64,000 bases of DNA from the NCBI RefSeq assembly GCF_055900595.2, contig NZ_CM148325.1; one strand, written 5' to 3'. The translations under genes were made by a program, and so were the position numbers. The notes under the pieces are model-generated. The model made no database searches, was not told where the DNA came from, and saw only the letters and a program-made list of their open reading frames with translations. Below, one piece after another: positions 1 through 24,912 of this stretch (positions are counted from its first letter, which is position 1; every line of letters begins with the position of its first letter).

Positions 1-241
1 CGGCGGTGGTTAACTCACCGCTTAAACAGAGCAGTAACACCTGTTCGCCTGTTGATGGCCGCCACCACGTCCGGGCATCACCGGCGCGTAGCGTCAGCCA
101 CGGTATCCAGTTGGTGGTCAGTTCACCAGTGTGAATGCGTACTCGATCGCCCTTCACCTCTTCAACGGTGCCGGTACGGATCAGGTTTTCAATGCGCCGG
201 TGCAGCTCGGCGAGGTTGGCTGGGTGGTTTGCGTCGCTCAT
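1..241 (-). CDS. Baseplate assembly protein V (gpV-like), N-terminal part; 3' end outside window
   Basis: Reverse-strand translation from ATG at 241: MSDANHPANLAELHRRIENLIRTGTVEEVKGDRVRIHTGELTTNWIPWLTLRAGDARTWWRPSTGEQVLLL, which resembles the P2 gpV N-terminus as recalled (IRTG, TWW-PS-GEQVL). Confidence 0.7.
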   Translation of the reverse strand, partial: MSDANHPANLAELHRRIENLIRTGTVEEVKGDRVRIHTGELTTNWIPWLTLRAGDARTWWRPSTGEQVLLLCLSGELTTA

Positions 242-305
242 GCCGGAATCATTGGGATTCGCGGGCGAAGAGGGAAGGGCTAAGGCTTGTAGGATAATGG
301 GCTAC

Positions 306-333
306 AAGTAAAACGCCCCTGAGTAGGGGCGTT
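306..333 (-). terminator. Hairpin plus T-tract downstream of hicB
   Basis: Stem aacgcccct/aggggcgtt with a 4-nt loop, followed on the - strand by TTTTAC. Confidence 0.45.
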
Positions 334-347
334 GAACGAAAAAGAGC

Positions 348-683
348 TTAACCGTGCGCAGCCTTCATCAGTGTATCGTTAATCCACTGGTTAACGCTTT
401 TACCGGAGACTTCTGCCGCAACGTTAATGGCAGAGTGAATTTCAGGTGGAATACGCAGGCTGATTTTTCCGCTGGCCGGACGCAACGGCTCCCGGCCCCG
501 TTCCTCGCAGTAAGCCAGATAGTCGTCTACCGCCTCTTCAAACGCTTTACGCAGATCGGCAACATTATCGGCATGAAAGCCAATGACATCCCGAATGCCT
601 GCAACGTGACCAACAATGCATTGATCTTCATCGCTGTATTCAATTTTTGCGGCATAGCCTCTATATGTCATGGTATTCATCAT
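348..683 (-). CDS. hicB: HicB-family antitoxin (RNase H-like fold plus C-terminal RHH)
   Basis: 111 aa. C-terminal ribbon-helix-helix-like segment ISLRIPPEIHSAINVAAEVSGKSVNQWINDTLMKA. 4-nt ATGA overlap with the upstream hicA. Confidence 0.75.
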   Translation of the reverse strand: MMNTMTYRGYAAKIEYSDEDQCIVGHVAGIRDVIGFHADNVADLRKAFEEAVDDYLAYCEERGREPLRPASGKISLRIPPEIHSAINVAAEVSGKSVNQWINDTLMKAAHG

Positions 684-943
684 GGTGTTACCCCTACAGC
701 TTCAAGGAATGTTCTGGCATCGCGAACCTGATAGGCTTTCGCTTCTTTTTCCGGGTGTGGACGATGAAATGAAGCCACAACCTGATTAATTTCAAACCTG
801 ACGCGGGAACCGTTTCCTTCCGTAGCAATAGCCCCCAAAGCAATAAATAAGGCTTCTATTTTTCGCCATTCCAGCGTGACAGGTGTTGGCGTAGAAAAAA
901 CAGCTTGTAAGGTTTTTTTATGTTTGGCGCTTAACGTATTCAT
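680..943 (-). CDS. hicA: HicA-family mRNA interferase toxin
   Basis: 87 aa. Pattern GNGSRVRF...HRPHPEKE...VR..RTFLEAVGV fits the HicA signature (GSH-x-F, HxP, KE, lysine/arginine-rich C-terminus). Immediately upstream of hicB. Confidence 0.7.
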   Translation of the reverse strand: MNTLSAKHKKTLQAVFSTPTPVTLEWRKIEALFIALGAIATEGNGSRVRFEINQVVASFHRPHPEKEAKAYQVRDARTFLEAVGVTP

Positions 944-992
944 ACAGGGTATTTTCCATAAGTTATTTTATTCTTCCGCCAAGATATAATGA

Positions 993-1013
993 TGATATCA
1001 TTTTTTGATATCA
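993..1013. promoter_or_regulatory. Putative hicAB operator: two copies of the palindrome TGATATCA
   Basis: TGATATCA at 993-1000 and 1006-1013, in the AT-rich region just upstream of the hicA start and downstream of the S stop. Confidence 0.45.
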
Positions 1014-1015
1014 TT

Positions 1016-1462
1016 TCAAGTCAGGAAGTGAACGATTAGCGCCTCTATCTTTCGCACATCCTCCGCCGAAACCCCCAGCAACTGCCTTTGTGCGTAATCC
1101 ACCTCCAACCCGTAGCGATTTACCCGATCGCGCAGGCCATACTGATGAACGGCGGCCATATGTCGAACGCTGCTGAGAAACGAAATGGTTACACCCTGCC
1201 CATCGCCTTTTCCTTTCATATAGCGTGCGGTACGCAGCTTACGGAACATCTGGCGGCGGATCTTTCCTTTTTTACTGCGTAGCTGGGGCTTACGGGGGGC
1301 GAACGATGAGCCGTCCGGGTTTTTCTGCGCGGCTATCCGCTGGCTTTGTGACTGGCGCAGGCTGCGGGCGATTTCCCGCGCCAGTTGGGTTCGGCTTGCC
1401 GGGGAGAGCTTTACGAGCAGGCCATCGGCCCAGCGGTGGAGTTGTTGCAGGTCTTCGCTCAT
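1016..1462 (-). CDS. Tail completion / virion morphogenesis protein (gpS-like)
   Basis: 148 aa, about the size of P2 gpS, in the expected position after R. Confidence 0.7.
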   Translation of the reverse strand: MSEDLQQLHRWADGLLVKLSPASRTQLAREIARSLRQSQSQRIAAQKNPDGSSFAPRKPQLRSKKGKIRRQMFRKLRTARYMKGKGDGQGVTISFLSSVRHMAAVHQYGLRDRVNRYGLEVDYAQRQLLGVSAEDVRKIEALIVHFLT

Positions 1463-1920
1463 CAGGTGCTCACAATCGTTTCACCGCGACAGGCGATTTC
1501 CCAGCCGTTGTAACCGCTTTCTGGCTGCTGGTCGTTACAGTGCTTTGCTTCCAGACCACCGTCGCGCTGGCGAACAATGACGCGCTCGGTCAGCGCCAGT
1601 TTGATGCTGATATCGTAGCTTTGATGGTCGATGGCTTCGGCCTCAAACTGAAACGCCTGCTCGCGCAGGTCGCTATTGGCGAAGGCTTCCTGCTGGTGAA
1701 GCGACATCCAGCCGACCAGTAGCACCATCAGCGTATCGGGATCGGCGGCGTAGTCGGTGATCAACAGTTCCAGCGTGTACTGGTATTCAAAACTGGTGCT
1801 GCGCCCTGCGGTGGCGACGATCCGGCCCTTATTGATAAAGATCCGCAGCGCGTCCGGGTTCTGCTGTAGATGCGGGACGCTGGCGGCCAGCAGTTCACGG
1901 ATGAGCTGCGCTTTGTGCAT
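1462..1920 (-). CDS. Tail completion protein (gpR-like)
   Basis: 152 aa, in the expected position between the lysis genes and S; start/stop overlap with S. Confidence 0.7.
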   Translation of the reverse strand: MHKAQLIRELLAASVPHLQQNPDALRIFINKGRIVATAGRSTSFEYQYTLELLITDYAADPDTLMVLLVGWMSLHQQEAFANSDLREQAFQFEAEAIDHQSYDISIKLALTERVIVRQRDGGLEAKHCNDQQPESGYNGWEIACRGETIVST

Positions 1921-3720: not shown

Positions 3721-3924
3721 TCAGTCCCACAGGTTGATTCGTTGACGTTCGGCGGCGGGAGCCTGTTCAGGTACGTTCACCGCCGTACCGTGCGGCAGGC
3801 GCAGCGGCAGTTCGCATAGGCGCGGGTTGTCGCGGTAAAGCCGTTCGACAATCCCGGCAGTGCGCCCGAAGGTGCGCCAGCAGAGCTGGTCGAGCGTTTC
3901 GTTTTGCAGGCTATAGACAATCAT
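3721..3924 (-). CDS. Tail protein X (gpX-like)
   Basis: 67 aa, the same length as P2 gpX. Sequence MIVYSLQNETLDQLCWRTFGRT.... Confidence 0.7.
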   Translation of the reverse strand: MIVYSLQNETLDQLCWRTFGRTAGIVERLYRDNPRLCELPLRLPHGTAVNVPEQAPAAERQRINLWD

Positions 3925-4038
3925 GGTGTTTCCCGCGCGGCGTCAGGTGATGCGGGGATGGTGGCACAGGGGCGGGAAGTGAAGGGAAGGCTTCCGCTTG
4001 TAACTGAGGACAGTACAAGCGGAAGCGATTGGCGAGGG

Positions 4039-4359
4039 CTATGCCTCGTCGCTGTCGGTATTGATGATTTTCAGTTCAGCGGACTTCTGGAGCTGGATCA
4101 GCGCCGGGATCAGAAGCGCGGTAGCCGACAGGCCGTGCCCTAACTGGCACAGGCTTTCAGCGGAGAATTCCAGCACGTTGCTGTCGGCAAAGGAGACGAA
4201 GGTTTTACCCAGAAAATGCAGGCCGTGACATAGCCCGGCATAGCACTCTTCGCTGCTGTTGGCCAGTTGCAGAGTATCGTCGGCGTTCAGGTGTGAAATA
4301 TCCAGCTTGCGGATCGCGTCCGCCAGTTCAGAGGACAGAATATTGGTTTCAGGCACCAT
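4039..4359 (-). CDS. Hypothetical protein, 106 aa, acidic C-terminus
   Basis: Strong SD (GGAGGT, 5-nt spacer) before the ATG at 4359. No family recognised by eye. Last of three small genes in the L-X island. Confidence 0.55.
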   Translation of the reverse strand: MVPETNILSSELADAIRKLDISHLNADDTLQLANSSEECYAGLCHGLHFLGKTFVSFADSNVLEFSAESLCQLGHGLSATALLIPALIQLQKSAELKIINTDSDEA

Positions 4360-4525
4360 GGCGCACCTCCAGCGGTTTGCAGGAGACGAACACCAGCGGG
4401 AAACCCGCCAGCAGGCCGCGAGCCTCTGTCTCTGTTGTCGCCAGTACGGATACCAGACGCAGTGGCTGGATCTCGCGCAGCAGGCGGTTGGAACGGGCGT
4501 TCAGGAAGGTGTAGAGCTTAGGCAT
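4352..4525 (-). CDS. Hypothetical small protein, 57 aa (not in ORF track because <60 aa)
   Basis: Hand translation: MPKLYTFLNARSNRLLREIQPLRLVSVLATTETEARGLLAGFPLVFVSCKPLEVRHGA. SD GGAGGT 4 nt before the ATG at 4525. Overlaps both neighbours by 8 nt. Confidence 0.5.
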
Positions 4526-4694
4526 GGTTCACCTCCTCTACCGGGGTGCTACGTGGGGGATTGAACGACTGAGCGATAACGCTCAGTGCCTGCTTACCTT
4601 CGGGATGCGCAAGACGGTAGTAAGTTAACAGGACTTGCTCCTGTGGGCTGAGATCGTCCCACGTGAGAGTTGTGTTACTATTAGCGGTAGCCAT
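4518..4694 (-). CDS. Hypothetical small protein, 58 aa
   Basis: ATG at 4694 preceded by GAGGT (MATANSNTTLTWDDLSPQEQVLLTYYRLAHPEGK...). The track's longer form starts at 4757 without a good SD. Confidence 0.5.
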   Translation of the reverse strand: MATANSNTTLTWDDLSPQEQVLLTYYRLAHPEGKQALSVIAQSFNPPRSTPVEEVNHA

Positions 4695-4836
4695 AGCATT
4701 ACCTCGATTAATGTTGTGGTTAGATGCCTTGGCAGTGTTCGCGCACTGTCGGGGCATTGTTATTTATGTCATGTGATAGTAATGTGTCATCACACAGTAC
4801 TACATTAACCTGAGTGTGATTTAGGTGTCAATACAC
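4695..4836. promoter_or_regulatory. AT-rich divergent promoter/operator region between the two island operons
   Basis: Inverted repeat TGTGAT...ATCACA (tgtcatgtgatagtaatgtgtcatcacacag) and further GTGTGA copies between the start codons at 4694 (-) and 4837 (+). Confidence 0.45.
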
Positions 4837-5004
4837 ATGAATGAAAGAAGAGGAAATCCTCCGTTTCAGTTTCGACTCGATCCTGAACTGAGAAACGCGA
4901 TGGAAGAAGCTAAAAAGCAAGATGGTGATGAATCACTGGCTGCGTGGATTAAGCGAATTATCAGAAAAGAGCTTCAGTCACGGGGTATAGAACCAAAAGA
5001 TTAG
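4837..5004 (+). CDS. Arc/MetJ-type ribbon-helix-helix DNA-binding protein, 55 aa
   Basis: Hand translation: MNERRGNPPFQFRLDPELRNAMEEAKKQDGDESLAAWIKRIIRKELQSRGIEPKD, matching the RHH pattern F-x-L-R-L-x-x-E-L...SLN/A.I..RL. First gene of the + operon. Confidence 0.55.
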   Translation: MNERRGNPPFQFRLDPELRNAMEEAKKQDGDESLAAWIKRIIRKELQSRGIEPKD

Positions 5005-5050
5005 CAGATAGGTATATACTTTGAATAAAGAGTATTAGAGGTAAAAAATA

Positions 5051-5239
5051 ATGGCGAAGAATAGCAGTCCTGCCAGCCGATACGGTATCAAGGTCGTAAA
5101 AAGAGACAGTATGAGCGGGCAGTTTGTACCCGTCGAAATGAAGCTGGACGGCCCGGAAGGTGAGCGTGTGATTAAAAAGTCGGCAGAGCGTATTTATGCC
5201 AGACACAACAAAGTCATTAAGGCGCTGGCTAACCGATGA
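5051..5239 (+). CDS. Putative antitoxin partner of the Doc toxin (family not recognised; not Phd/YefM-like)
   Basis: 62 aa. SD AGAGGT upstream. Stop overlaps the Doc start (ATGA at 5236-5239), a typical toxin-antitoxin coupling. Confidence 0.5.
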   Translation: MAKNSSPASRYGIKVVKRDSMSGQFVPVEMKLDGPEGERVIKKSAERIYARHNKVIKALANR

Positions 5240-5613
5240 TTGATGCACATTTGGTGATTGGAATTCACGACTTTATTCTTGCTCATGAGCCGGGATTGGT
5301 TGGTTATCAGGATGCTGGCCGGGTCGAGGCAACACTGGCACGGGTGGATAACCGTATTCTGTATGAGCAGATGAATGATATTTTCCAGATCGCCGCATCT
5401 TATGCGGTTGCCATCGCCAGAGGGCACGTTTTTGCTGATGCCAACAAGCGAACGGCACTGGTGACGGCGTTGACATACCTTGATATGCAGGGTGTGAACC
5501 TCAAGCGAACACAAAAGCTGGAAGATATTATGGTGGATGTGGCTGAGGGAACGCTAAATCTGGATGATTTAGCCGATATTTTCTATACCCTTAGTGATGT
5601 AAATGCTTCCTGA
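5236..5613 (+). CDS. doc: Doc (death-on-curing) family toxin, Fic fold
   Basis: 125 aa. Conserved Doc motif HVFADANKRTA (HxFx[DN][AG]NKR). Size and layout parallel P1 Doc. Confidence 0.8.
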   Translation: MIDAHLVIGIHDFILAHEPGLVGYQDAGRVEATLARVDNRILYEQMNDIFQIAASYAVAIARGHVFADANKRTALVTALTYLDMQGVNLKRTQKLEDIMVDVAEGTLNLDDLADIFYTLSDVNAS

Positions 5614-5618
5614 CGTTA

Positions 5619-5643
5619 CAGCCCGACAGATCGGGCTGTTTTT
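5619..5643. terminator. Bidirectional hairpin terminator between the convergent Doc gene and the 78-aa gene
   Basis: cagcccga-caga-tcgggctg followed by TTTTT on + strand; A-run on the other side. Confidence 0.6.
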
Positions 5644-5645
5644 AA

Positions 5646-5882
5646 TTATGCCGCCTCAATACCCGCGTTGGTTAACATATAGTGGCCCCAGTGGTTTTTT
5701 TTCAGGTAACCGGCCAGTTCCATCTGCGTCACAATAAATTCAGCGTTAACCATTTCTATACCTGCGTAGTCGGCCAGATCGCGCAGCGGCCATGTGCTGC
5801 GAACGCCGACGCTAACTATGGTGTCTCTGATGCGGCGAGCGGTATCGGTCATTGGGCGGGTTCTGGCTGCCTGAATAGTCAT
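5646..5882 (-). CDS. Hypothetical protein, 78 aa, possible winged-helix DNA-binding protein
   Basis: ATG at 5882 with SD AGGGGA. Sequence ...LRDLADYAGIEMVNAEFIVTQMELAGYLKK... Lies directly after L on the late strand. Confidence 0.45.
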   Translation of the reverse strand: MTIQAARTRPMTDTARRIRDTIVSVGVRSTWPLRDLADYAGIEMVNAEFIVTQMELAGYLKKNHWGHYMLTNAGIEAA

Positions 5883-5998
5883 GGTATTTTCCCCTGTAGA
5901 TTCTTTCTGTTAGGTCAGACACTAACTCTGGTGGGGAAGGGGCATCCAGCGTTCAGATGAGGCGATACGGTGATGCGCATCGCATATCCGTACTCTTT

Positions 5999-6466
5999 TT
6001 ATACCAGAACAAACGTACTGCGCGGCTTGCCCAGAATATCCCGCACGGCGAAGCGGGCATCGCGCGCCAGATCGTCGGCGGTGCTTTCCTTCTGTTCCGC
6101 CAGTTTGCTGCCGTGGGCGGTGGCATCAAAGTTACGGTAGCGTTCCAGCAGGTTTGCGTGCGTCAGGCTGTACACCGCGTAGCGGTAGCGGTGCAGGTTA
6201 ACGCTTTCGCCGTCCAGCCGTTCGGTAGTAGTTTCCACAATGCCGGTTGTGCCACGGCTTTCCTGCTCCAGCCGCCATTCCCGCAGGTCGTCGTTCACGC
6301 TGGCCAGCGCAATCAGCAGCGCCTCGCGCAGCCGTTCGTTGGTGATGGTGCTGTCCAGCCGTTGGGTTGCACGCAGATGTTGCGTATCGATATTGGGAAA
6401 GAAAGGGTGGTTGCTGATAACCAGCCCCGGCAGACTGGCGGCGGGGGCAACCTGAATAAAGCTCAT
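5999..6466 (-). CDS. Head completion/stabilisation protein (gpL-like)
   Basis: 155 aa from the ATG at 6466 (MSFIQVAPAASLPG...) with SD GGAGA. Position after small terminase M. The track's longer form begins at an upstream alternative start. Confidence 0.7.
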   Translation of the reverse strand: MSFIQVAPAASLPGLVISNHPFFPNIDTQHLRATQRLDSTITNERLREALLIALASVNDDLREWRLEQESRGTTGIVETTTERLDGESVNLHRYRYAVYSLTHANLLERYRNFDATAHGSKLAEQKESTADDLARDARFAVRDILGKPRSTFVLV

Positions 6467-6551
6467 TATATTCTCCCTGTTCGGCGGTGGACGGCGGGCG
6501 TTGCAGTGGTAAAACCACGCGCGGCCAGCCGTGCCGCCGGTCGTGAGGGTC

Positions 6552-7205
6552 TCACTCGGTAGGCTGACTGTTGCGAATTTGTCGCTCCAGTTGCTCAATC
6601 AGCTTTTTCACGCCGACGTTCTCATCCAGTTGTAGCGCGCGCTGGAACTGCGCCAGCGCCTCCTGCGGCTGGCTTTCGCTGTGTGCCAGCCCCAATGCCT
6701 TGTGCAGGCGAGCGCGAACCTGATCCGGCATGTCCTGATCGGCTAACAGCCCGGCAAAGGCCAGCAGGCTGTCCAGCGCCGCAAAGGTACCGGCGGTAAG
6801 CTGTTTCAGGGTGGTGTCGGCGACCTCTTCAGCCACCATGCAGGCGGTCTGCCGCTGGTACTGATCCGGCGTTACCCAGCCGTGTTTCAGGGCGTGTTCC
6901 GCCATGGGGTAGGCAGCGGGAAAGTCGCCGGTATCCAGCGTCCAGAGCAGCACCGTCATAAACACATCGTCCTGCTGTTGGCTGTCGGCAGCCAGAACGC
7001 CGCTTACCCATGGCTGGTAATCGGGCAGCAGTTCACCCTTAACCTCGATTTTGCGTTCAATGGACTGGATCGCTTTCAGGCGGCGTTTATCGGTTGCCAG
7101 CTTTGCCAGCATCAGTTCATAGCCGCTGGCGTAGGTCTGATTTTCCTGTTGATTTGCGGCCTGCGCCTGATAGCGCAGCAGGTGGCGGCGGGCAGGCGTC
7201 ATCAT
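6552..7205 (-). CDS. Terminase small/endonuclease subunit (gpM-like)
   Basis: 217 aa, in the P2 late-operon position between N and L. Confidence 0.65.
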   Translation of the reverse strand: MMTPARRHLLRYQAQAANQQENQTYASGYELMLAKLATDKRRLKAIQSIERKIEVKGELLPDYQPWVSGVLAADSQQQDDVFMTVLLWTLDTGDFPAAYPMAEHALKHGWVTPDQYQRQTACMVAEEVADTTLKQLTAGTFAALDSLLAFAGLLADQDMPDQVRARLHKALGLAHSESQPQEALAQFQRALQLDENVGVKKLIEQLERQIRNSQPTE

Positions 7206-10999: not shown

Positions 11000-11976
11000 A
11001 TAACTCAATGGCTTTCACCTTCGGTGAACCTGAAGCCCTGCTGGACAGGCGGGAAATACTGAACTATCTGGAGTGCGTGGACTTTGGCAAATGGTATGCG
11101 CCGCCGGTGGATTTTAATTCGCTGGCGCTGTCGTTCCGCGCTTCGGCGCATCATACCAGCCCGATCTGCGTGAAGCGCAACGTGCTGGTTGGTACCTTCA
11201 TACCTCATCCGTTGTTGACCCGGCAGGCGTTCAGCCGCCTTGCGCTGGACTATCTGGTATTCGGCAATGCCTATCTGGAGCGGCAGGATAACCGGCTGGG
11301 CCAGCCGTTAACGCTGGTGCCTGCGCTGGCGAAGTATGTCCGGCGCGGCAAGGCGCTGGACAGCTATTTCTTTGTTCAGCCCGGTAAAGTGGATCATGAG
11401 TTTGCGTCGGGCAGTATCGGCCACCTGCTGGAGCCGGATATCAATCAGGAAATCTACGGCCTGTCGGAATACCTCTCTGCGCTGAACGCGGCATGGCTGG
11501 ATAACTCCGCCACGCTGTTTCGCCGTCGTTACTACAAGAACGGCAGTCATGCCGGTTTCATCCTCTACCTGAGCGACCCGGCCCACAACGAGGCGGATAT
11601 TGGGGCGTTACAGGAAGCGCTAGCGAACAGCCGTGGCCCCGGCAACTTCCGCAATCTGCTGATGTATCTGCCGAACGGCAAGCCAGACAGCGTAAAGGTT
11701 ATCCCGATTGGCGAGGTGGCGGCGAAAGATAACTTCTCCGATATCAAGAGTGTCAGCCGTGACGACCAGTTAGCTGCGCACCGGGTACCACCTGCGCTCA
11801 TGGGCGTGGTACCGAGTAACGCCGGTGGCTTTGGTGATGCCATCAAAGCGGCGAAGGTATTCAACTGCAATGAGATCGAGCCGCTACAGGAACGGTTCAA
11901 GGAGCTGAACGACTGGCTGGGGCTGGAGGTTATTCGCTTCAAAAAGTACCGCCTTGCCGACGACGATTCAGAGTAA
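10996..11976 (+). CDS. Portal vertex protein (gpQ-like)
   Basis: 326 aa, translationally coupled to the terminase (ATGA overlap); position as in P2 Q. Confidence 0.65.
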   Translation: MNNSMAFTFGEPEALLDRREILNYLECVDFGKWYAPPVDFNSLALSFRASAHHTSPICVKRNVLVGTFIPHPLLTRQAFSRLALDYLVFGNAYLERQDNRLGQPLTLVPALAKYVRRGKALDSYFFVQPGKVDHEFASGSIGHLLEPDINQEIYGLSEYLSALNAAWLDNSATLFRRRYYKNGSHAGFILYLSDPAHNEADIGALQEALANSRGPGNFRNLLMYLPNGKPDSVKVIPIGEVAAKDNFSDIKSVSRDDQLAAHRVPPALMGVVPSNAGGFGDAIKAAKVFNCNEIEPLQERFKELNDWLGLEVIRFKKYRLADDDSE

Positions 11977-12021
11977 CCCCACCAACGACCAGCTCACTAT
12001 CAGAGCCACCATGCGCCATTC

Positions 12022-12046
12022 AGCCCGCTTCCTGCGGGCTTTTTTA
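12022..12046 (+). terminator. Rho-independent terminator after the portal gene
   Basis: agcccgc-ttcct-gcgggct followed by TTTTTT. Confidence 0.65.
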
Positions 12047-12295
12047 CGCCTTCTCACCGCCAGAATCCCCGGTCAGCACCGCCAGCGCGCGGTTGTGACC
12101 CCGCCACGCCTGCGCAGTAAATAGATCGCTTTTTTTGCACTGGTGCGTAAGCGTCGGAGCGGGCCATAACGGGAGGGCGTGGTCGGGTTGCAGTTGCAGC
12201 AGAATCATGCGGATTTATACGCCCTGTGTATGCGCCAGAGACGATCGGGAGGGCAATGCCACGATCCTTTCGGTATTTTTGGATCGCCTGTCGGG

Positions 12296-12581
12296 AAAAG
12301 GTAACCTCAGTAATTAGCAGTAAAAATAATGCTTATTCTATTGTTTATAAAAGAGAAATTTGGTTACCCCTAAAAGGTAATCTGAGGTAACCCAAAAGGT
12401 AACCTGTTTTATATTTTCATATAAATCATGATGTTACAAATTAGAAGACATCACTATTATAAAAGGTAACCTGATTACGCTTTGGTTACCAAAAGATTAC
12501 CTTTCTCTGTTTTTGAAAAATCCTTTTTATTCATTAAGTTATTTTGATTTTTCGTTGCAGGTTACTAAGGTTACCTTTTTC
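12296..12581. repeat. Array of about 9-10 copies of (A)AAAGGTAAYC in both orientations; candidate protein-binding sites
   Basis: Direct copies near 12296, 12372, 12385, 12394, 12461; inverted copies near 12362, 12484, 12497, 12560, 12570. AT-rich; no ORF of 60 aa or more. Confidence 0.6.
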
Positions 12582-12850
12582 CGAAGTCCCCACGGACTTT
12601 GGTATATATAGATAGGTTAAAAAGTAGCCGTTATGTTTGCCAGCTATTTACTTCCCATTCTTCCACTGGCCAGCATGTTAATATGCCCGGTAATGATAAC
12701 TAGTTGCCATTGGGTTACTTTCTTCTGTGGACGGTAAAACTGACGGTAAATTGGGTTGTGGGTCTCGATTTAGATTAGTAAAATCAAGTGATTAAGTCGA
12801 CTGTAGATAATCGAGTGGGAATGATTTGATCCCTGCACTATGAATTAGCA

Positions 12851-12880
12851 AAACCCTCTGTTACTACAGAGGGTTTTTTA
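12851..12880 (-). terminator. Hairpin terminator downstream of yfgI (bidirectional shape)
   Basis: aaaccctctg-ttacta-cagagggttt flanked by T/A runs. Confidence 0.6.
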
Positions 12881-12917
12881 TACTCACGAATCATAGGATT
12901 GAAGTTACTGACATCGC

Positions 12918-13457
12918 TTAGTTAAACCAGCTGTCCGATTTGTTTTCTTCTGCTTTGCCCACGCTTTTCATCAGATCGCGACCGCCTTCAGTCATATTCC
13001 TGTTTGCGTCAGCTTCAGATTGCACCACATCGGTTTGCGCAGCTTTGTGCTTCAGTTCCTGATCGATAAATTCGTTTTCTCGCTTAACGCGGGCTTCTTC
13101 TTTCGCCAGCGCCAGTTTTTGTTTCTGAATCTCTAAGCTGCGTAGCTCATCTTCATAACTTTGATCGCGTTTCTTGTCCGCAGTGGCTTCGGCGTCCAGT
13201 TTATCCTGACGAGCTTTCTTATTCGCCGCTGCCGTTGCCGCTCTTTTATTAGCCGCGGCCTGGGCGTTTGCGCGACGTTGCTTCTCTTGCTGGATTTCCC
13301 TGTTGCGCTCCGCGACCCATTCGTCATGCTGCCTTTGCTCTTCGTTTTTACCTTGCTGTTCCGCTTCTGCGACAGCAGAGAGTTGATCCTGCAATGATGA
13401 GGCGATAGCCGGATAGCTTAAGGAGGCTAAGATGGCGCAAAGAAAAACTTTCTTCAT
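12918..13457 (-). CDS. yfgI: YfgI, secreted protein of unknown function
   Basis: 179 aa with signal peptide (MKKVFLCAILASLSYPAIA); K/E/A-rich. Recognised as E. coli yfgI by sequence and neighbourhood. Confidence 0.85.
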   Translation of the reverse strand: MKKVFLCAILASLSYPAIASSLQDQLSAVAEAEQQGKNEEQRQHDEWVAERNREIQQEKQRRANAQAAANKRAATAAANKKARQDKLDAEATADKKRDQSYEDELRSLEIQKQKLALAKEEARVKRENEFIDQELKHKAAQTDVVQSEADANRNMTEGGRDLMKSVGKAEENKSDSWFN

Positions 13458-13472
13458 GACTCCTCCTGATTA

Positions 13473-13991
13473 TTAGCTCTTTTCAGGACATTTGGTATTT
13501 GGCTGAATACGCGTTTCGTTATACGTCGTGGTAATAACAACGGCTAAACCTGTCGTAAACTGGCACTCTTTACCCACCTGGGTGGAGGTATACACTTTGG
13601 TGCCTTCCTTATACGTTAGAGAAACACCTTCCACTAAGGTTTTATCATTCACCATAGAACCTGCTGCCGCGCCAACAGCTCCGCCGCCAACTGCACCTGC
13701 CGTCGTTCCGGAATTGCTGCCAGACCCCACGTTGTGGCCGATAACACCGCCAGCGACTGCACCAATAAGCGCGCCGAAGGCTTGTGCGTTTCGTTTATTT
13801 TGGGAGTTGTCTACGGCAACTTTTGCGGGAAGAATGGAAATAATATTAACGGTTTTAGTTTCTTGTTTGGTATTCAGTTGATCGGTTTGATAAACATCGG
13901 CGGCATGATCATCAGCATTTGACTGGCATCCTGCCAGAGTGAATGACGCTAACATTGCCACAGGCAGAAGACATTTTTTAAATTTCATCAC
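13473..13991 (-). CDS. yfgH: YfgH, outer-membrane lipoprotein (glycine-zipper)
   Basis: 172 aa with lipobox LAGC; GxxxG-rich segment. Confidence 0.85.
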   Translation of the reverse strand: MMKFKKCLLPVAMLASFTLAGCQSNADDHAADVYQTDQLNTKQETKTVNIISILPAKVAVDNSQNKRNAQAFGALIGAVAGGVIGHNVGSGSNSGTTAGAVGGGAVGAAAGSMVNDKTLVEGVSLTYKEGTKVYTSTQVGKECQFTTGLAVVITTTYNETRIQPNTKCPEKS

Positions 13992-14301
13992 TATTCCTTG
14001 TTATACACATTACGAAAAATAAGACATTTAAGATCATCAAAAGAGGAAAGTAAATGTATTGCGTATAAAGGAATAGATTAAATTTATTAAAATTCATGTG
14101 GAAAATAATTTATAAAAATACATCATTAAAACATATGTATTAATTTTATATTTATTTCGCAGCCAAACAGGATAAACATCAGTCAGGACAAAGACGTAAA
14201 ATTTAAGATGAAAGAATATCTGCCGCTTTGATAATCTCAAAGAGCAACTGCATCCGACAGCGAGGTGCCGTTATGTTCAGTGAAGGTGGAGAAGGTAACC
14301 G

Positions 14302-14493
14302 CTAACGTTGTACCGGTGATTCGACGGAGAGTGTGGATTGTTGAGCTTCTTTTTTGCTCTGATGGTGCTGCCAGGCACCGACGGACGAGTAGATAAAGCG
14401 GCCAAAGAAGAAGATAAAGCTGATGAGCAGTACGATACGGGTCATGCGACTGTTAAATCGGTGTCGTTTTCGCATACTGGTTGCCTGACTCAC
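14302..14493 (-). CDS. yfgG: YfgG, small membrane protein
   Basis: 63 aa, one TM helix; position between yfgH and pdeF. Confidence 0.75.
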   Translation of the reverse strand: MSQATSMRKRHRFNSRMTRIVLLISFIFFFGRFIYSSVGAWQHHQSKKEAQQSTLSVESPVQR

Positions 14494-14844
14494 AAAAGGT
14501 TCCTTGAAGTATGTCCCACATCGTGGACGGTACTTACATTAAGGCACACCAGGACAAAATGGTCAATTCTTCATTATGTAAAAAAGCGTCAGTGGATACA
14601 TATTTTAATGTTATGGAAGTTAATTTAATTATTTACAGTGATGATGTAATAATGATGAATTAACATGATAAACGTAATAATTCATTAATCAGGGTTATTT
14701 TGTTTGATATATATCAATTGGAACTTTCATATGACACTTAGAATCAATGCTCTCTATAGTGATGAATAATCATCATTCGAAGTCAGGTGGGATGCCTGTC
14801 TGAATACACCTCCTTCAGGATGTGGGGGATTCTGCTGAGCATCT

Positions 14845-17088
14845 ATGAAACTGAATGCAACTTATATAAAAATACGTGATAAATGGTGGGGGCTTCCGCT
14901 GTTCCTGCCTTCTTTCATCTTGCCCGTTTTCGCCCATATTAATACTTTCGCGCATATTTCTTCCGGTGAGGTTTTTCTCTTTTACCTGCCTTTGGCACTG
15001 ATGATCAGCATGATGATGTTTTTCAGCTGGGCGGCATTGCCAGGTATCGCTTTAGGGATTTTTGTTCGCAAATATGCAGAGCTGGGTATTTACGAAACGC
15101 TCTCATTAACAGCTAATTTTATTATCATTATCATTCTCTGTTGGGGCGGTTACAGGGTCTTTACTCCCCGGCGTAACAACGTTTCACATGGTGATACCCG
15201 TTTAATTGCCCAGCGTATATTCTGGCAGATTGTATTTCCTGCAACGCTGTTTCTAATACTTTTCCAATTTGCTGCGTTTGTTGGATTACTGGCGAGCAGA
15301 GAAAATCTGGTCGGCGTCATGCCCTTTAACCTCGGGACCTTAATCAATTATCAGGCCTTGCTGGTAGGTAATCTGATTGGTGTCCCGCTGTGCTATTTCA
15401 TCATTCGGGTGGTGCGAAATCCGTTTTATTTACGTAGCTATTATTCGCAATTAAAACAGCAGGTTGATGCCAAAGTTACCAAAAAAGAGTTCGCGCTCTG
15501 GCTACTGGCATTAGGTGCGTTGTTGCTGCTGTTGTGCATGCCGTTAAATGAAAAAAGCACAATTTTTAGCACCAATTATACCTTGTCATTATTGCTGCCC
15601 CTGATGATGTGGGGAGCGATGCGCTATGGTTATAAGCTGATTTCGCTGCTCTGGGCGGTCGTGCTGATGATCAGCATCCACAGCTATCAAAATTACATTC
15701 CCATTTATCCTGGCTATACCACGCAGCTGACCATAACCTCCTCCAGTTATCTGGTATTCTCTTTTATTGTCAATTATATGGCTGTACTGGCAACCCGTCA
15801 GCGAGCGGTAGTCAGACGCATTCAGCGGCTTGCGTATGTGGACCCGGTGGTTCATTTGCCAAATGTTCGCGCCCTGAATCGCGCGTTGCGTGATGCCCCC
15901 TGGTCTGCGCTTTGTTATTTACGCATCCCCGGCATGGAAATGCTGGTTAAGAACTATGGCATCATGCTACGGATTCAATACAAGCAAAAACTTTCTCACT
16001 GGCTGTCACCATTGCTGGAACCGGGTGAAGATGTTTATCAGCTTTCGGGTAACGATCTCGCGCTGCGACTGAATACAGAAGCGCACCAGGAGCGCATTAC
16101 CGCACTGGATAGCCATCTCAAGCAATTTCGTTTCTTTTGGGATGGAATGCCGATGCAACCGCAGATTGGCGTCAGTTACTGCTATGTGCGCTCGCCAGTG
16201 AATCATATCTACTTACTGCTGGGAGAGCTAAATACGGTCGCCGAACTTTCCATCGTGACCAACGCCCCGGAAAATATGCAGCGTCGCGGGGCAATGTATT
16301 TGCAACGCGAATTGAAAGATAAAGTCGCGATGATGAATCGGCTACAGCAGGCGCTGGAACACAACCATTTTTTCCTGATGGCCCAGCCGATTAACGGTAT
16401 GCGTGGTGATGTCTACCATGAGATCCTTCTGCGCATGAAAGGTGATAATGATGAACTGATCAGCCCCGACAGCTTCTTGCCGGTCGCGCACGAATTTGGT
16501 TTATCGTCGAGTATCGACATGTGGGTCATTGAGCATACGCTGCAATTTATGGCTGAAAACAGAGCGAAGATGCCCGCTCACCGTTTTGCGATTAATCTGT
16601 CGCCAACCTCGGTATGTCAGGCTCGTTTTCCCGTTGAAGTCAGTCAACTGCTGGCTAAATATCAAATTGAAGCGTGGCAACTTATTTTTGAAGTCACCGA
16701 AAGTAATGCTCTGACCAATGTTAAGCAGGCGCAAATCACCTTGCAGCATCTTCAGGAATTAGGCTGCCAGATTGCGATTGATGATTTCGGCACCGGCTAC
16801 GCCAGCTATGCGCGGCTTAAAAATGTGAATGCCGATCTCCTTAAAATTGACGGCAGTTTTATCCGCAATATTGTGTCAAATAGTCTGGATTACCAGATAG
16901 TGGCGTCGATTTGTCACCTGGCGCGAATGAAGAAAATGCTGGTAGTGGCAGAGTACGTTCAAAACGAAGAGATCCGCGAGGCGGTGCTTTCTTTAGGGAT
17001 AGATTATATGCAGGGTTATCTTATTGGTAAGCCGCAACCGTTAATTGATACGCTGAATGAAATCGAACCCATTCGCGAAAGTGCCTGA
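14845..17088 (+). CDS. pdeF: Cyclic-di-GMP phosphodiesterase PdeF (YfgF): membrane MASE1 domain, degenerate GGDEF, EAL
   Basis: 747 aa. N-terminal multi-TM region and C-terminal EAL-type region (DDFGTGYAS motif). Confidence 0.9.
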   Translation: MKLNATYIKIRDKWWGLPLFLPSFILPVFAHINTFAHISSGEVFLFYLPLALMISMMMFFSWAALPGIALGIFVRKYAELGIYETLSLTANFIIIIILCWGGYRVFTPRRNNVSHGDTRLIAQRIFWQIVFPATLFLILFQFAAFVGLLASRENLVGVMPFNLGTLINYQALLVGNLIGVPLCYFIIRVVRNPFYLRSYYSQLKQQVDAKVTKKEFALWLLALGALLLLLCMPLNEKSTIFSTNYTLSLLLPLMMWGAMRYGYKLISLLWAVVLMISIHSYQNYIPIYPGYTTQLTITSSSYLVFSFIVNYMAVLATRQRAVVRRIQRLAYVDPVVHLPNVRALNRALRDAPWSALCYLRIPGMEMLVKNYGIMLRIQYKQKLSHWLSPLLEPGEDVYQLSGNDLALRLNTEAHQERITALDSHLKQFRFFWDGMPMQPQIGVSYCYVRSPVNHIYLLLGELNTVAELSIVTNAPENMQRRGAMYLQRELKDKVAMMNRLQQALEHNHFFLMAQPINGMRGDVYHEILLRMKGDNDELISPDSFLPVAHEFGLSSSIDMWVIEHTLQFMAENRAKMPAHRFAINLSPTSVCQARFPVEVSQLLAKYQIEAWQLIFEVTESNALTNVKQAQITLQHLQELGCQIAIDDFGTGYASYARLKNVNADLLKIDGSFIRNIVSNSLDYQIVASICHLARMKKMLVVAEYVQNEEIREAVLSLGIDYMQGYLIGKPQPLIDTLNEIEPIRESA

Positions 17089-17126
17089 ACAGCGAGGGCC
17101 GACATTTCTTGTCGGCCCGCAAAGCA

Positions 17127-20739
<3,613 letters not shown>

Positions 20740-20910
20740 TACCACTTTTACTCCGTTTTATTCACGGGACACTGCCTGGATATTATGGCGAGCAATATTG
20801 GCAGATGTCCAACTATGCCAGAAAAGGGGGAAAAAAACTGCTGGAGCTTGCGATTTACAGGTGAATTGAAAAACGCCAGCGGCAGAGCTGGCGCTTTAAC
20901 TACGGGGGCA

Positions 20911-21548
20911 TTACTCGTCGGCAGCGTAGCCCTGCGGCGGCAGACGTTGACCATCCAGCCACGCGGCGTTTTCGTGCATTTTCAGACGACCATCGGCAAA
21001 CCAGCTAATCACCAGTGGATAAATAGCGTGTTCCTGGGTTTGCACGCGGGCGGTGATGTCATCCTCCGTATCACCAGCAAATACCGGGACTTTCGCCTGT
21101 AAAATAACCGGGCCACCGTCCAGTTCATCGGTGACGAAATGCACCGATGTACCGTGCTCTTCATCGCCATTTTCCAGCGCCTGACGATGGGTGTGTAATC
21201 CGGGATATTTCGGCAGCAGAGAAGGGTGAATGTTCAGCAAACGCCCGGCATAGTGGGAGACAAACGCCGGGCTGAGAATGCGCATAAAACCAGCCAGCAC
21301 GACCACATCGGGTGCGTACATGTCGATTTCATGAATCAACTCCCGGTCATAGGCTTCACGACTGTCAAACGCGCCGGCGATGAGCGTATGCGTTGCAATA
21401 CCCGCCTGGCGGGCGCGTTCAAGGCCGAACGCGTCGGCCTTATTGCTGAAAACTGCCCGTACGGTGCCTTTAATTTTATTGGTTTTGCAGGCGTCAATAA
21501 TTGCCTGCAAATTACTTCCGTTGCCGGAAATAAGCACCACAATATTCA

Positions 21549-21549
<1 letters not shown>
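20911..21549 (-). CDS. purN: Phosphoribosylglycinamide formyltransferase
   Basis: 212 aa (MNIVVLISGNGSNLQAIIDA...), downstream of purM. Confidence 0.95.
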
Positions 21550-22604
<1,055 letters not shown>

Positions 22605-22648
22605 TTACTTGCGGTAGAAAAATAAAATTCGGCGCAATTCTAACAGGG

Positions 22649-22664
22649 AAAGCAAACGTTTGCG
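22649..22664. promoter_or_regulatory. PurR operator (PUR box) in the purMN promoter
   Basis: aaGCAAACGTTTGCga, a palindrome matching the PurR-box consensus, about 65 bp upstream of purM. Confidence 0.7.
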
Positions 22665-22910
22665 AGACTGCTTTACACAACCTTTTTGCACTTCATTTTC
22701 CCAAGCGCGCGGCGAAAGAATAGCTGCACTGTGGCAAAGAAGAGTTTTTGGATGGAATAATATTCTTTCATAACCACATGAATATAAAGTAACTTTATCT
22801 AAAACCGTTATCATTTTGACTCAAATCAACGAAAATAATATTGCCGCCTTGAAGAAAGGAGGTATAATCCGTCGATTTTTTTTGTGGCTGCCCCTCAAAG
22901 GAGAAAGAGT

Positions 22911-23537
22911 ATGAAGATCGTGGAAGTCAAACACCCACTCGTCAAACACAAGCTGGGACTGATGCGTGAGCAAGATATCAGCACCAAGCGCTTTCGCGAA
23001 CTCGCTTCCGAAGTGGGTAGCCTGCTGACTTACGAAGCGACCGCCGACCTCGAAACGGAAAAAGTAACTATCGAAGGCTGGAACGGCCCGGTAGAAATCG
23101 ACCAGATCAAAGGTAAGAAAATTACCGTTGTGCCAATTCTGCGTGCGGGTCTGGGGATGATGGACGGTGTGCTGGAAAACGTTCCGAGCGCGCGCATTAG
23201 CGTCGTCGGTATGTACCGTAATGAAGAAACGCTGGAGCCGGTACCGTACTTCCAGAAACTGGTTTCTAACATCGATGAGCGTATGGCGCTGATCGTTGAC
23301 CCAATGCTGGCAACCGGTGGTTCCGTTATCGCGACCATCGACCTGCTGAAAAAAGCGGGCTGCAGCAGCATCAAAGTTCTGGTGCTGGTAGCTGCGCCAG
23401 AAGGTATCGCAGCGCTGGAAAAAGCGCACCCGGACGTCGAACTGTATACTGCATCGATTGACCAGGGACTGAACGAGCACGGATACATTATTCCGGGCCT
23501 CGGCGATGCCGGTGACAAAATCTTTGGTACGAAATAA
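22911..23537 (+). CDS. upp: Uracil phosphoribosyltransferase
   Basis: 208 aa from ATG at 22911 ([20 protein letters not shown]...) with SD AAGGAG. Confidence 0.95.
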
Positions 23538-23552
23538 AGAATAAAAATAATT

Positions 23553-23583
23553 AAAGCCGACTTTAAGAGTCGGCTTTTTTTTG
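23553..23583 (+). terminator. Rho-independent terminator after upp
   Basis: aaagccgact-ttaag-agtcggcttt followed by a T-run. Confidence 0.7.
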
Positions 23584-23622
23584 AGTAAAGCGCCTATAAC
23601 ACATAATACAGAGGATAATACT

Positions 23623-24912
23623 ATGACGCGCCGTGCTATCGGGGTGAGTGAAAGACCGCCACTTTTACAGACAATCCCGCTTAGTTTGCAACATTTGTTC
23701 GCCATGTTTGGTGCAACCGTCTTGGTGCCCGTCTTATTTCATATTAACCCGGCGACTGTACTGTTATTTAACGGTATAGGAACGCTGCTGTATCTCTTCA
23801 TCTGTAAAGGGAAAATCCCGGCTTATCTTGGTTCCAGCTTTGCCTTTATTTCACCGGTATTGTTACTGTTGCCGTTAGGGTATGAAGTCGCGCTGGGCGG
23901 CTTTATTATGTGCGGCGTGCTGTTCTGCCTGGTTTCTTTTATCGTGAAGAAAGCGGGGACCGGCTGGCTGGACGTGCTGTTTCCACCTGCGGCAATGGGC
24001 GCAATCGTTGCCGTCATCGGTCTGGAGTTGGCGGGCGTAGCTGCCGGTATGGCAGGTTTACTCCCGGCTGAAGGGCAAACGCCAGACTCCAAAACCATCA
24101 TCATCTCCATTACCACGCTGGCAGTCACGGTTTTAGGTTCCGTGCTGTTTCGTGGTTTCCTGGCAATTATCCCGATTTTAATTGGCGTGCTGGTGGGCTA
24201 CGCGCTCTCTTTCGCAATGGGAATTGTCGATACCACGCCGATTATTAATGCTCACTGGTTTGCGCTGCCAACTCTCTATACGCCGCGCTTCGAGTGGTTT
24301 GCCATTCTGACTATTCTGCCAGCGGCGTTAGTGGTTATTGCCGAACACGTAGGGCACCTGGTAGTAACGGCTAATATCGTCAAAAAAGATCTGCTGCGCG
24401 ATCCAGGTCTGCACCGTTCGATGTTTGCTAACGGCTTGTCGACCGTGATCTCCGGCTTCTTTGGCTCCACGCCAAACACCACCTACGGGGAAAACATTGG
24501 CGTGATGGCGATCACCCGTGTTTACAGTACCTGGGTTATCGGCGGGGCGGCGATTTTCGCTATCCTGCTTTCCTGCGTCGGTAAACTGGCTGCTGCTATC
24601 CAGATGATCCCATTGCCGGTGATGGGCGGCGTTTCGCTGCTGCTTTATGGTGTTATCGGTGCTTCCGGTATTCGTGTTTTGATCGAATCGAAAGTGGATT
24701 ACAACAAAGCACAGAACCTGATCCTGACTTCCGTGATTTTGATCATCGGTGTCAGTGGCGCGAAGGTAAACATCGGCGCGGCGGAGCTGAAAGGTATGGC
24801 GCTGGCGACCATCGTCGGTATCGGCTTAAGTTTGATCTTCAAACTGATTAGTGTGCTGCGACCTGAAGAAGTGGTGCTGGACGCAGAAGACGCGGATATA
24901 ACAGACAAATAA
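23623..24912 (+). CDS. uraA: Uracil:H+ symporter
   Basis: 429 aa from ATG at 23623 ([16 protein letters not shown]...); polytopic membrane protein. Confidence 0.95.

Follow-up and report, generated by a model that had tools for sequence, protein, structure and literature searches.

The junction between tail-completion gene S and baseplate gene V of a P2-like E. coli prophage most probably carries a complete, horizontally acquired and autoregulated class 4 type II hicAB toxin-antitoxin module as exchangeable cargo. The DNA analysed was a stretch of 64,000 nucleotides (hereafter the window), in which the genes concerned are all encoded on the minus strand and transcribed in the order gpS, hicA, hicB, gpV, with the hicA stop codon and the hicB ATG overlapping as ATGA. 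The features of the junction were as follows.

1–241 (to the window edge), minus strand: 5′ part of baseplate gene V (gpV), phage backbone; TIGR01644 phage_P2_V, 7e-23
284–306: dyad cTTGTA-N11-TACAAg, ~45–65 nt upstream of the V start; backbone, not cargo
302–333 (stem 333–312), minus strand: intrinsic-terminator-like hairpin with a T-rich tail; consensus match only
683–348, minus strand: hicB, 111 aa; Pfam, PHROGs and fold matches
943–680, minus strand: hicA, 87 aa; Pfam, PHROGs and fold matches
944–991, minus strand: hicA leader, between the -10 and the start codon; contains TTGGCGG
1019–992, minus strand: sigma-70-type promoter, -35 TTGAAA (1019–1014), 16 nt, -10 TATCAT (997–992), TG-extended
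1462–1016, minus strand: tail-completion gene S (gpS); TIGR01635, 4.5e-36

The V gene of the window was 95–100% identical to V of the IMG/VR loci L003 and L085. A further open reading frame on the plus strand (354–731), which runs antisense to hicB and had no PADLOC match, was taken as a shadow of hicB. An Rfam scan of window positions 1–1600 returned no match.

An earlier note, made from the sequence alone, had read the two cargo genes as a HicA-like toxin and a HicB-like antitoxin, and profile searches (Pfam and PHROGs) as well as AlphaFold and Foldseek comparisons agreed with this assignment. HicA matched Pfam HicA_toxin (PF07927) at 6.5e-8 over residues 26–75 and the PHROGs family phrog_8887 'toxin' at 1.7e-32; a search of NCBIfam with HicA gave no match, and its homologues are annotated as HicA family toxins. 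Searches for solved HicA or HicB structures, using single sequences or family profiles, yielded no significant sequence match, and for this reason folds were compared instead. The AlphaFold2 model of HicA, based on the family alignment, reached a pLDDT of 94.3 and displayed the dsRBD-like HicA fold, in which an extra N-terminal helix (residues 6–16) is followed by an alpha-beta-beta-beta-alpha topology (helix 26–35, strands 39–42, 47–52 and 55–60, helix 70–83). The top Foldseek matches in the PDB were 6g26_E (B. pseudomallei HicA), 1whz (TTHA1913) and 6hpb_A (E. coli HicA), with target-normalised TM scores of 0.63–0.69.

HicB matched Pfam HicB (PF05534) at 4e-18 over residues 55–105 and phrog_9151 'HicB-like antitoxin' at 8e-48. 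Its C-terminal stretch also matched Pfam TacA1 (6e-5) and, weakly, CopG and Arc, and the protein further showed a weak match to UPF0150 (0.041), a weak profile match to the Arc repressor 1b28, and only a sub-threshold YlcI/YnfO match in NCBIfam. The AlphaFold2 model, again based on the family alignment (pLDDT 88.2), consisted of four strands, a helix (41–61) and two C-terminal helices (80–92 and 97–110), and Foldseek matched it to 2dsy (TTHA0281) with a probability of 1.00 and to 6g26_A/B (B. pseudomallei HicB) with a probability of 0.99. An N-terminal partial RNase H-like fold of the UPF0150/TTHA0281 type and a C-terminal ribbon-helix-helix DNA-binding domain were both found in HicB, and the pair was thereby confirmed as HicA plus a HicB with a ribbon-helix-helix domain, i.e., hicAB of class 4 as defined by Gerdes. 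Other members of this class, such as Y. pestis HicA3B3 and B. pseudomallei HicAB (Gerdes 2024; PMC10865869), share the order hicA to hicB, the N-terminal HicB fold with a C-terminal ribbon-helix-helix, the dsRBD-like HicA and palindromic operators (putative ones in the window) at the promoter. In contrast to the Y. pestis and B. pseudomallei toxins, HicA of the window is ~85 aa long with its extra N-terminal helix, and carries an arginine in place of the catalytic histidine together with an invariant H-R-P-H-P motif.

In this HicA, G45-S46-R47 replaces the canonical G-S-H, and the second motif reads H60-R-P-H63-P. The canonical catalytic histidine (G-x-H motif) is thus absent and Arg47 occupies its place: in the alignment with the solved HicA 9svk_A it falls on the histidine of the GSH motif, and by motif comparison it corresponds to His23 of E. 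coli HicA (GSNH). Residues were then counted in 150 representatives of the clade that are mutually ≤50% identical. Position 47 was arginine in 132, alanine in 8 and histidine in none of them, while His60 was present in 146/150 and His63 in 149/150. In P. aeruginosa HicA, the conserved histidine is His24, and a conserved histidine is needed by every characterised HicA, the key residues being Yp His28, Bps Gly22/His24, Ec His23, Stp His36, Sm His24 and Adephagia His31 (review PMC11594946). RNase activity of the window HicA may be expected but is not assured, because the histidine of every characterised HicA is an arginine here. However, residue 60 pairs across strands with residue 47 in the beta2-beta3 hairpin of the AlphaFold2 model (strands 47–52 and 55–60), which suggests that the catalytic histidine may have been relocated to the neighbouring strand (His60/His63) and not lost.

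I found no experimentally characterised member of this ~85-aa GSR/HRPHP clade in the literature. Members of the clade do appear among the class 3 and class 4 HicAs of Gerdes Table S1, in which 34 sequences carry HRPHP and about 43 carry GSR[V/I]; the catalytic residues of HicA are not discussed in the main text of that paper (PMC10865869). One of the pairs in the same table, listed as 'class 4, hicAB (phage)', is that of the P2-like Burkholderia phage ST79 (YP_008060490/89), which belongs to the same long-HicA clade, is 45% (HicA) and 47% (HicB) identical to the window proteins and likewise shows the GSR and HRPHP motifs as well as a gene overlap. The ST79 pair lies beside the portal gene in an old/tin-type hotspot, whereas hicAB of the window lies between S and V. 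A further hicAB is found in the lambdoid phages mEp234 and HK106, unlike the window prophage not P2-like, where it is located in the immunity region between cI and N (L120 1254–1959). Its HicB is 36% identical to HicB of the window, but its HicA only 22%; this HicA is also long, carries GSGR and FHEPHP and also lacks the canonical histidine, which means that temperate phages unrelated to one another have the histidine-less type.

Upstream of hicA, a consensus scan identified the sigma-70-type promoter with 10/12 matches plus TG (consensus match only), and the gpS stop codon (1018–1016) falls inside its -35 hexamer. The two palindromes that had been pointed out upstream of the cassette lie within this predicted promoter. 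The whole 64-kb window contains just two copies of TGATATCA, at 993–1000 and 1006–1013, against an expectation of 0.75; both belong to a direct repeat of 11 nt with a spacing of 13 bp and to a perfect inverted repeat of 9 nt. The copy at 1006–1013 is placed in the spacer beside the -35, while the copy at 993–1000 contains the extended -10. A promoter-like site at 671–643 was disregarded as an internal promoter, as it lies inside hicB and downstream of the hicB start codon.

The hicA upstream regions of 78 bacterial genomes, covering Enterobacterales, Pseudomonas, Legionella, Coxiella, Geobacter, Chloroflexi and others, were surveyed for such sites. Two TGnTnnCA sites, always exactly 13 bp apart, were found upstream of 37/78 hicA homologues, whereas two control regions taken from these loci had 0/78 each. 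This comparison gives good support to the view that the paired palindromes are an operator, which the linked ribbon-helix-helix antitoxin would recognise. The survey also revealed differences in the leader: enterobacterial cassettes (L005, L006, L007 and L087) had leaders of 41–48 nt with a conserved TTGGCGG ~10 nt past the second operator (972–978 in the window), while outside this group the distance from the end of the second operator to the hicA start was mostly only ~8 nt. The latter spacing hints that non-enterobacterial hicA mRNAs may be leaderless or have a very short leader.

At the other end of the cassette, the hairpin at 333–312 comprises 9 pairs, 6 of them GC, with -17.3 kcal/mol and z = -4.0, and none of 200 shuffles was as stable. 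The sequence of the hairpin is specific to the cargo, and each other cargo variant brings its own hairpin between S and the dyad. The hairpin terminator that the earlier note had assigned to the cassette is therefore present with a sequence of the cargo's own, but its occurrence does not single out hicAB: a predicted terminator at this point is an architectural constant of the junction, where the end of the S operon meets the V promoter, and is seen in every variant. In the window, the putative terminator would end the hicAB transcript along with any read-through from the S operon. The description of the cassette as a self-contained module nevertheless holds for its layout of promoter, operator, genes and terminator. 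The dyad was found in the same place in the window, L086, L088 and L089, that is, next to four different cargos, and is probably the activator site (Ogr-type) of the late V promoter.

The cassette differs from its surroundings in base composition, with a GC content of 0.40–0.46 across 600–1100 compared with 0.57–0.62 in S, R and V; the GC content of the prophage backbone is ~58%. DNA homology to relatives with other cargo (L086, L088 and L089) stops at 1044 and resumes at 277–313. The position between S and V that was originally described is correct, but the swapped segment (~307–313 to 1043) is more than an insertion between the two genes, as it also takes in the last 9 codons of S (1016–1043).

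To survey the junction, 35 IMG/VR loci encoding a relative of the window S were compared, in 32 of which V was also found. The S-V gap was <100 bp in 22/32 of these related phages, and 10/32 had an insert of 0.5–2.8 kb, which was present in 5/5 of the closest relatives. The same hicAB was found at S-V in L085 (100%) and L087 (87% for hicA and 95% for hicB). At the same site, L086 carries a RelE/ParE protein (TIGR02683) with its antidote (TIGR02684), L089 a RelE-like open reading frame with NadS, and L088 AbiTii (PADLOC 9e-44). AbiTii also occupies the slot in E. coli L725 (1e-42), and in E. coli GMF054 the slot holds a 150-aa homologue of PD-Lambda-3 component A (PADLOC PD-Lambda-3_A, 1.5e-38). 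The GMF054 gene (L122 3226–3681) is annotated as hypothetical and stands alone in the slot. S-V in more distant phages contained an NYN-domain gene, a gene for a Dam-like methylase, or unknown genes. In two Pseudomonas-like high-GC P2-type loci (L113 3938–6757 and L114 3938–7438), the slot contained a fragment of a transposase as well as a secreted protein of 436 aa; this protein had no NCBIfam match, and a frameshift splits its gene in L114.

The variety of contents among related prophages bears out the proposal that the S-V junction is a cargo site, and the small extra open reading frame that the earlier note placed here in P2 is orf30, which lies between S and V (PMC3091744). Foreign genes are common at three places in P2-like phages, TO, Z and orf30, which are their classical regions of horizontal transfer (PMC3091744). 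The orf30 region of P2 matches the window in S-V position, variable content and atypical composition; the slot holds orf30 in P2, a toxin-antitoxin module in the window, and AbiTii, the PD-Lambda-3_A homologue or RelE-type pairs in its relatives. Hence, hicAB at S-V is exchangeable cargo in an already known variable region. Papers on defence hotspots centre on the A-Q and Z/fun sites (PMC9122126; PMC9519451; bioRxiv 2024.10.15.618418), which, and not S-V, are the hotspots of Rousset 2022 and Vassallo 2022; a 2026 preprint places hotspots 'within the late genes' as well as downstream of GpL.

Both hicA and hicB are under purifying selection, with dN/dS values of 0.09 and 0.04, respectively, relative to the L087 copy. 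Relatives of HicA were found in at least 577 loci of a collection with one genome per species and were encoded on 129 viral contigs, and a profile search with HicA yielded 1,039 clusters at 50% identity for E up to 1e-10 and 2,776 for E up to 1e-3. hicB was located directly 3′ of hicA in 86/86 homologous loci examined. A reading of hicA and hicB as chance open reading frames was rejected because of the profile matches, the purifying selection and this wide conservation with an adjacent hicB in every examined locus. Among the best 80 viral contigs, the pair was found at S-V only in the lineage of the window prophage; 4 others had it beside a P2-type portal gene, and the rest in other contexts. 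Near-identity DNA searches gave no match for the region in 50,697 phage records and no match for the cassette in 5,426 complete E. coli genomes. Identical or 99% copies of the cassette were found in IMG/VR, one NCBI assembly and one Logan assembly, so the cassette is rare, not absent, in public data.

The host is E. coli, with a ppk 100% identical to that of E. coli strains, and the gene order yfgI-yfgH-pdeF-ppx-ppk-purN-purM begins <1 kb past the portal gene Q (window 11976–23705). Replication and integrase genes are absent from the Q-side of the prophage, which is either differently arranged compared with P2 or truncated on that side. The prophage backbone was found in only 3/5,426 complete E. 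coli genomes, at 96% identity and always at the same site beside yfgI, and 0/3 of these genomes had hicAB. Between L and X, the prophage of the window has another cargo region (3925–5999; gpX 3721–3924, gpL 5999–6598), which contains the following features.

4825–5004: YlcI/YnfO-like ribbon-helix-helix open reading frame, 59 aa
5051–5239: 62-aa open reading frame before the Doc gene, without a family match; could be the Doc antitoxin
5236–5613, plus strand: Doc (death-on-curing) family toxin; TIGR01550, 3.7e-25

Elsewhere, the L-X slot was occupied by RelE/ParE with an HTH protein (E. coli L725) or by Doc (GMF054), and this region fits the 'downstream of GpL' hotspot of the 2026 preprint.

The layout of the cassette points to the following mode of action. 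In the lysogen, the cassette's own sigma-70 promoter would drive its transcription, the ATGA overlap would couple the translation of hicA and hicB, and HicB would bind and neutralise HicA. The ribbon-helix-helix domain of HicB would bind both operators, one in the spacer and one over the extended -10, and thereby switch off its own promoter, while the hairpin would stop the transcript just before the late promoter of V. If HicB were lost, for instance because an infecting phage shuts off transcription or because the prophage disappears, HicA would be set free and would arrest growth, most likely by cutting RNA. By association, inter-phage competition or abortive infection appears to be the most likely role, because of the other cargos held at the same site (AbiTii, the PD-Lambda-3_A homologue and toxin-antitoxin pairs). 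A defence role for hicAB was proposed by Gerdes on the basis of gene context (PMC10865869), and according to a review, experiments have yet to validate an anti-phage activity of HicAB (PMC11594946).

The main alternative, which I consider rather unlikely, is that the module acts chiefly in addiction, stabilising the prophage or its own place at S-V by post-segregational killing, and does not serve in defence. Toxin-antitoxin pairs carried by mobile elements classically serve addiction, plasmid stabilisation by a HicAB from a Paracoccus prophage is on record (review PMC11594946), and the L-X site of the window prophage itself holds a second toxin-antitoxin-like pair with its Doc-family toxin. 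In line with addiction, the cassette had no PADLOC match, with no family in PADLOC-DB 2.0 found for HicA or HicB at E up to 1. Direct tests of one prophage HicAB point the other way on stability: HicAB2 of P. putida prophage P1 (PP_3900-3899), prophage-borne as in the window, was a working and potent toxin-antitoxin pair in a kill/rescue assay but had no effect on prophage stability, nor on defence against the phages tested (PMC12894663). The published HicAB2 primers, compared with the loci at hand to see whether this pair belongs to the clade of the window HicA, matched none of them. In addition, AbiTii and the PD-Lambda-3_A homologue in the S-V slot of close relatives are defence and not addiction genes. 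Less probable still is a HicA-like protein that lacks RNase activity or toxicity and is an RNA-binding regulator or has some other chemistry, with the pair serving as a regulator. The arginine that predominates at position 47, where histidine never occurs, and the lack of a characterised clade member in the literature would favour such a view. However, the HicA fold is kept, as are the toxin-antitoxin hallmarks of hicB linkage, gene overlap and putative autoregulatory operator, selection is strongly purifying, and the near-invariant His60 and His63, the former pairing with residue 47 in the model, suggest a relocated active site.

Finally, the cassette may serve the lytic cycle of the phage or counter-defence, either with HicB as an antidote to HicA-type toxins of the host or with HicA as a host-shutoff nuclease made by late read-through from the S operon. 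The genes do have the orientation of late genes and directly follow S with no terminator in between, phages are known to acquire antitoxins against toxin-antitoxin systems (review PMC11594946), and PHROGs places both families in the category 'moron, auxiliary metabolic gene and host takeover'. I nevertheless regard this as very improbable. A complete pair with its own operator-controlled sigma-70 promoter would be a design for expression in the lysogen; the S-V slot is empty in most related phages and therefore dispensable for lytic growth, which makes a lytic role less likely; and HicB of E. coli K-12 is of the HTH-type class 3 and belongs to a different clade. Beyond the preferred reading of an autoregulated hicAB cargo module, a more far-reaching one is possible, albeit doubtful: that the GSR...HRPHP clade of HicA has moved its active site to His60/His63, with a distinct catalysis or target, that it acts here in an abortive-infection module, and that S-V is a third, as yet unmapped defence hotspot of P2-like phages.

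The novelty of these findings is modest, in that class 4 hicAB and the orf30 variable region are of already known kinds, while the histidine-less HicA clade and S-V as a defence-type hotspot are leads. Within this lineage of P2-like phages, AbiTii, a PD-Lambda-3_A homologue and toxin-antitoxin pairs of three kinds replace one another in the S-V (orf30) slot; given these varied contents, the slot behaves like the better-known defence hotspots A-Q and Z/fun and is open to the same kind of mining. The cassette itself offers a clean natural test case for the question of whether HicAB modules protect against phages, and likewise for how a large HicA clade functions when it lacks the histidine on which every studied HicA toxin depends.
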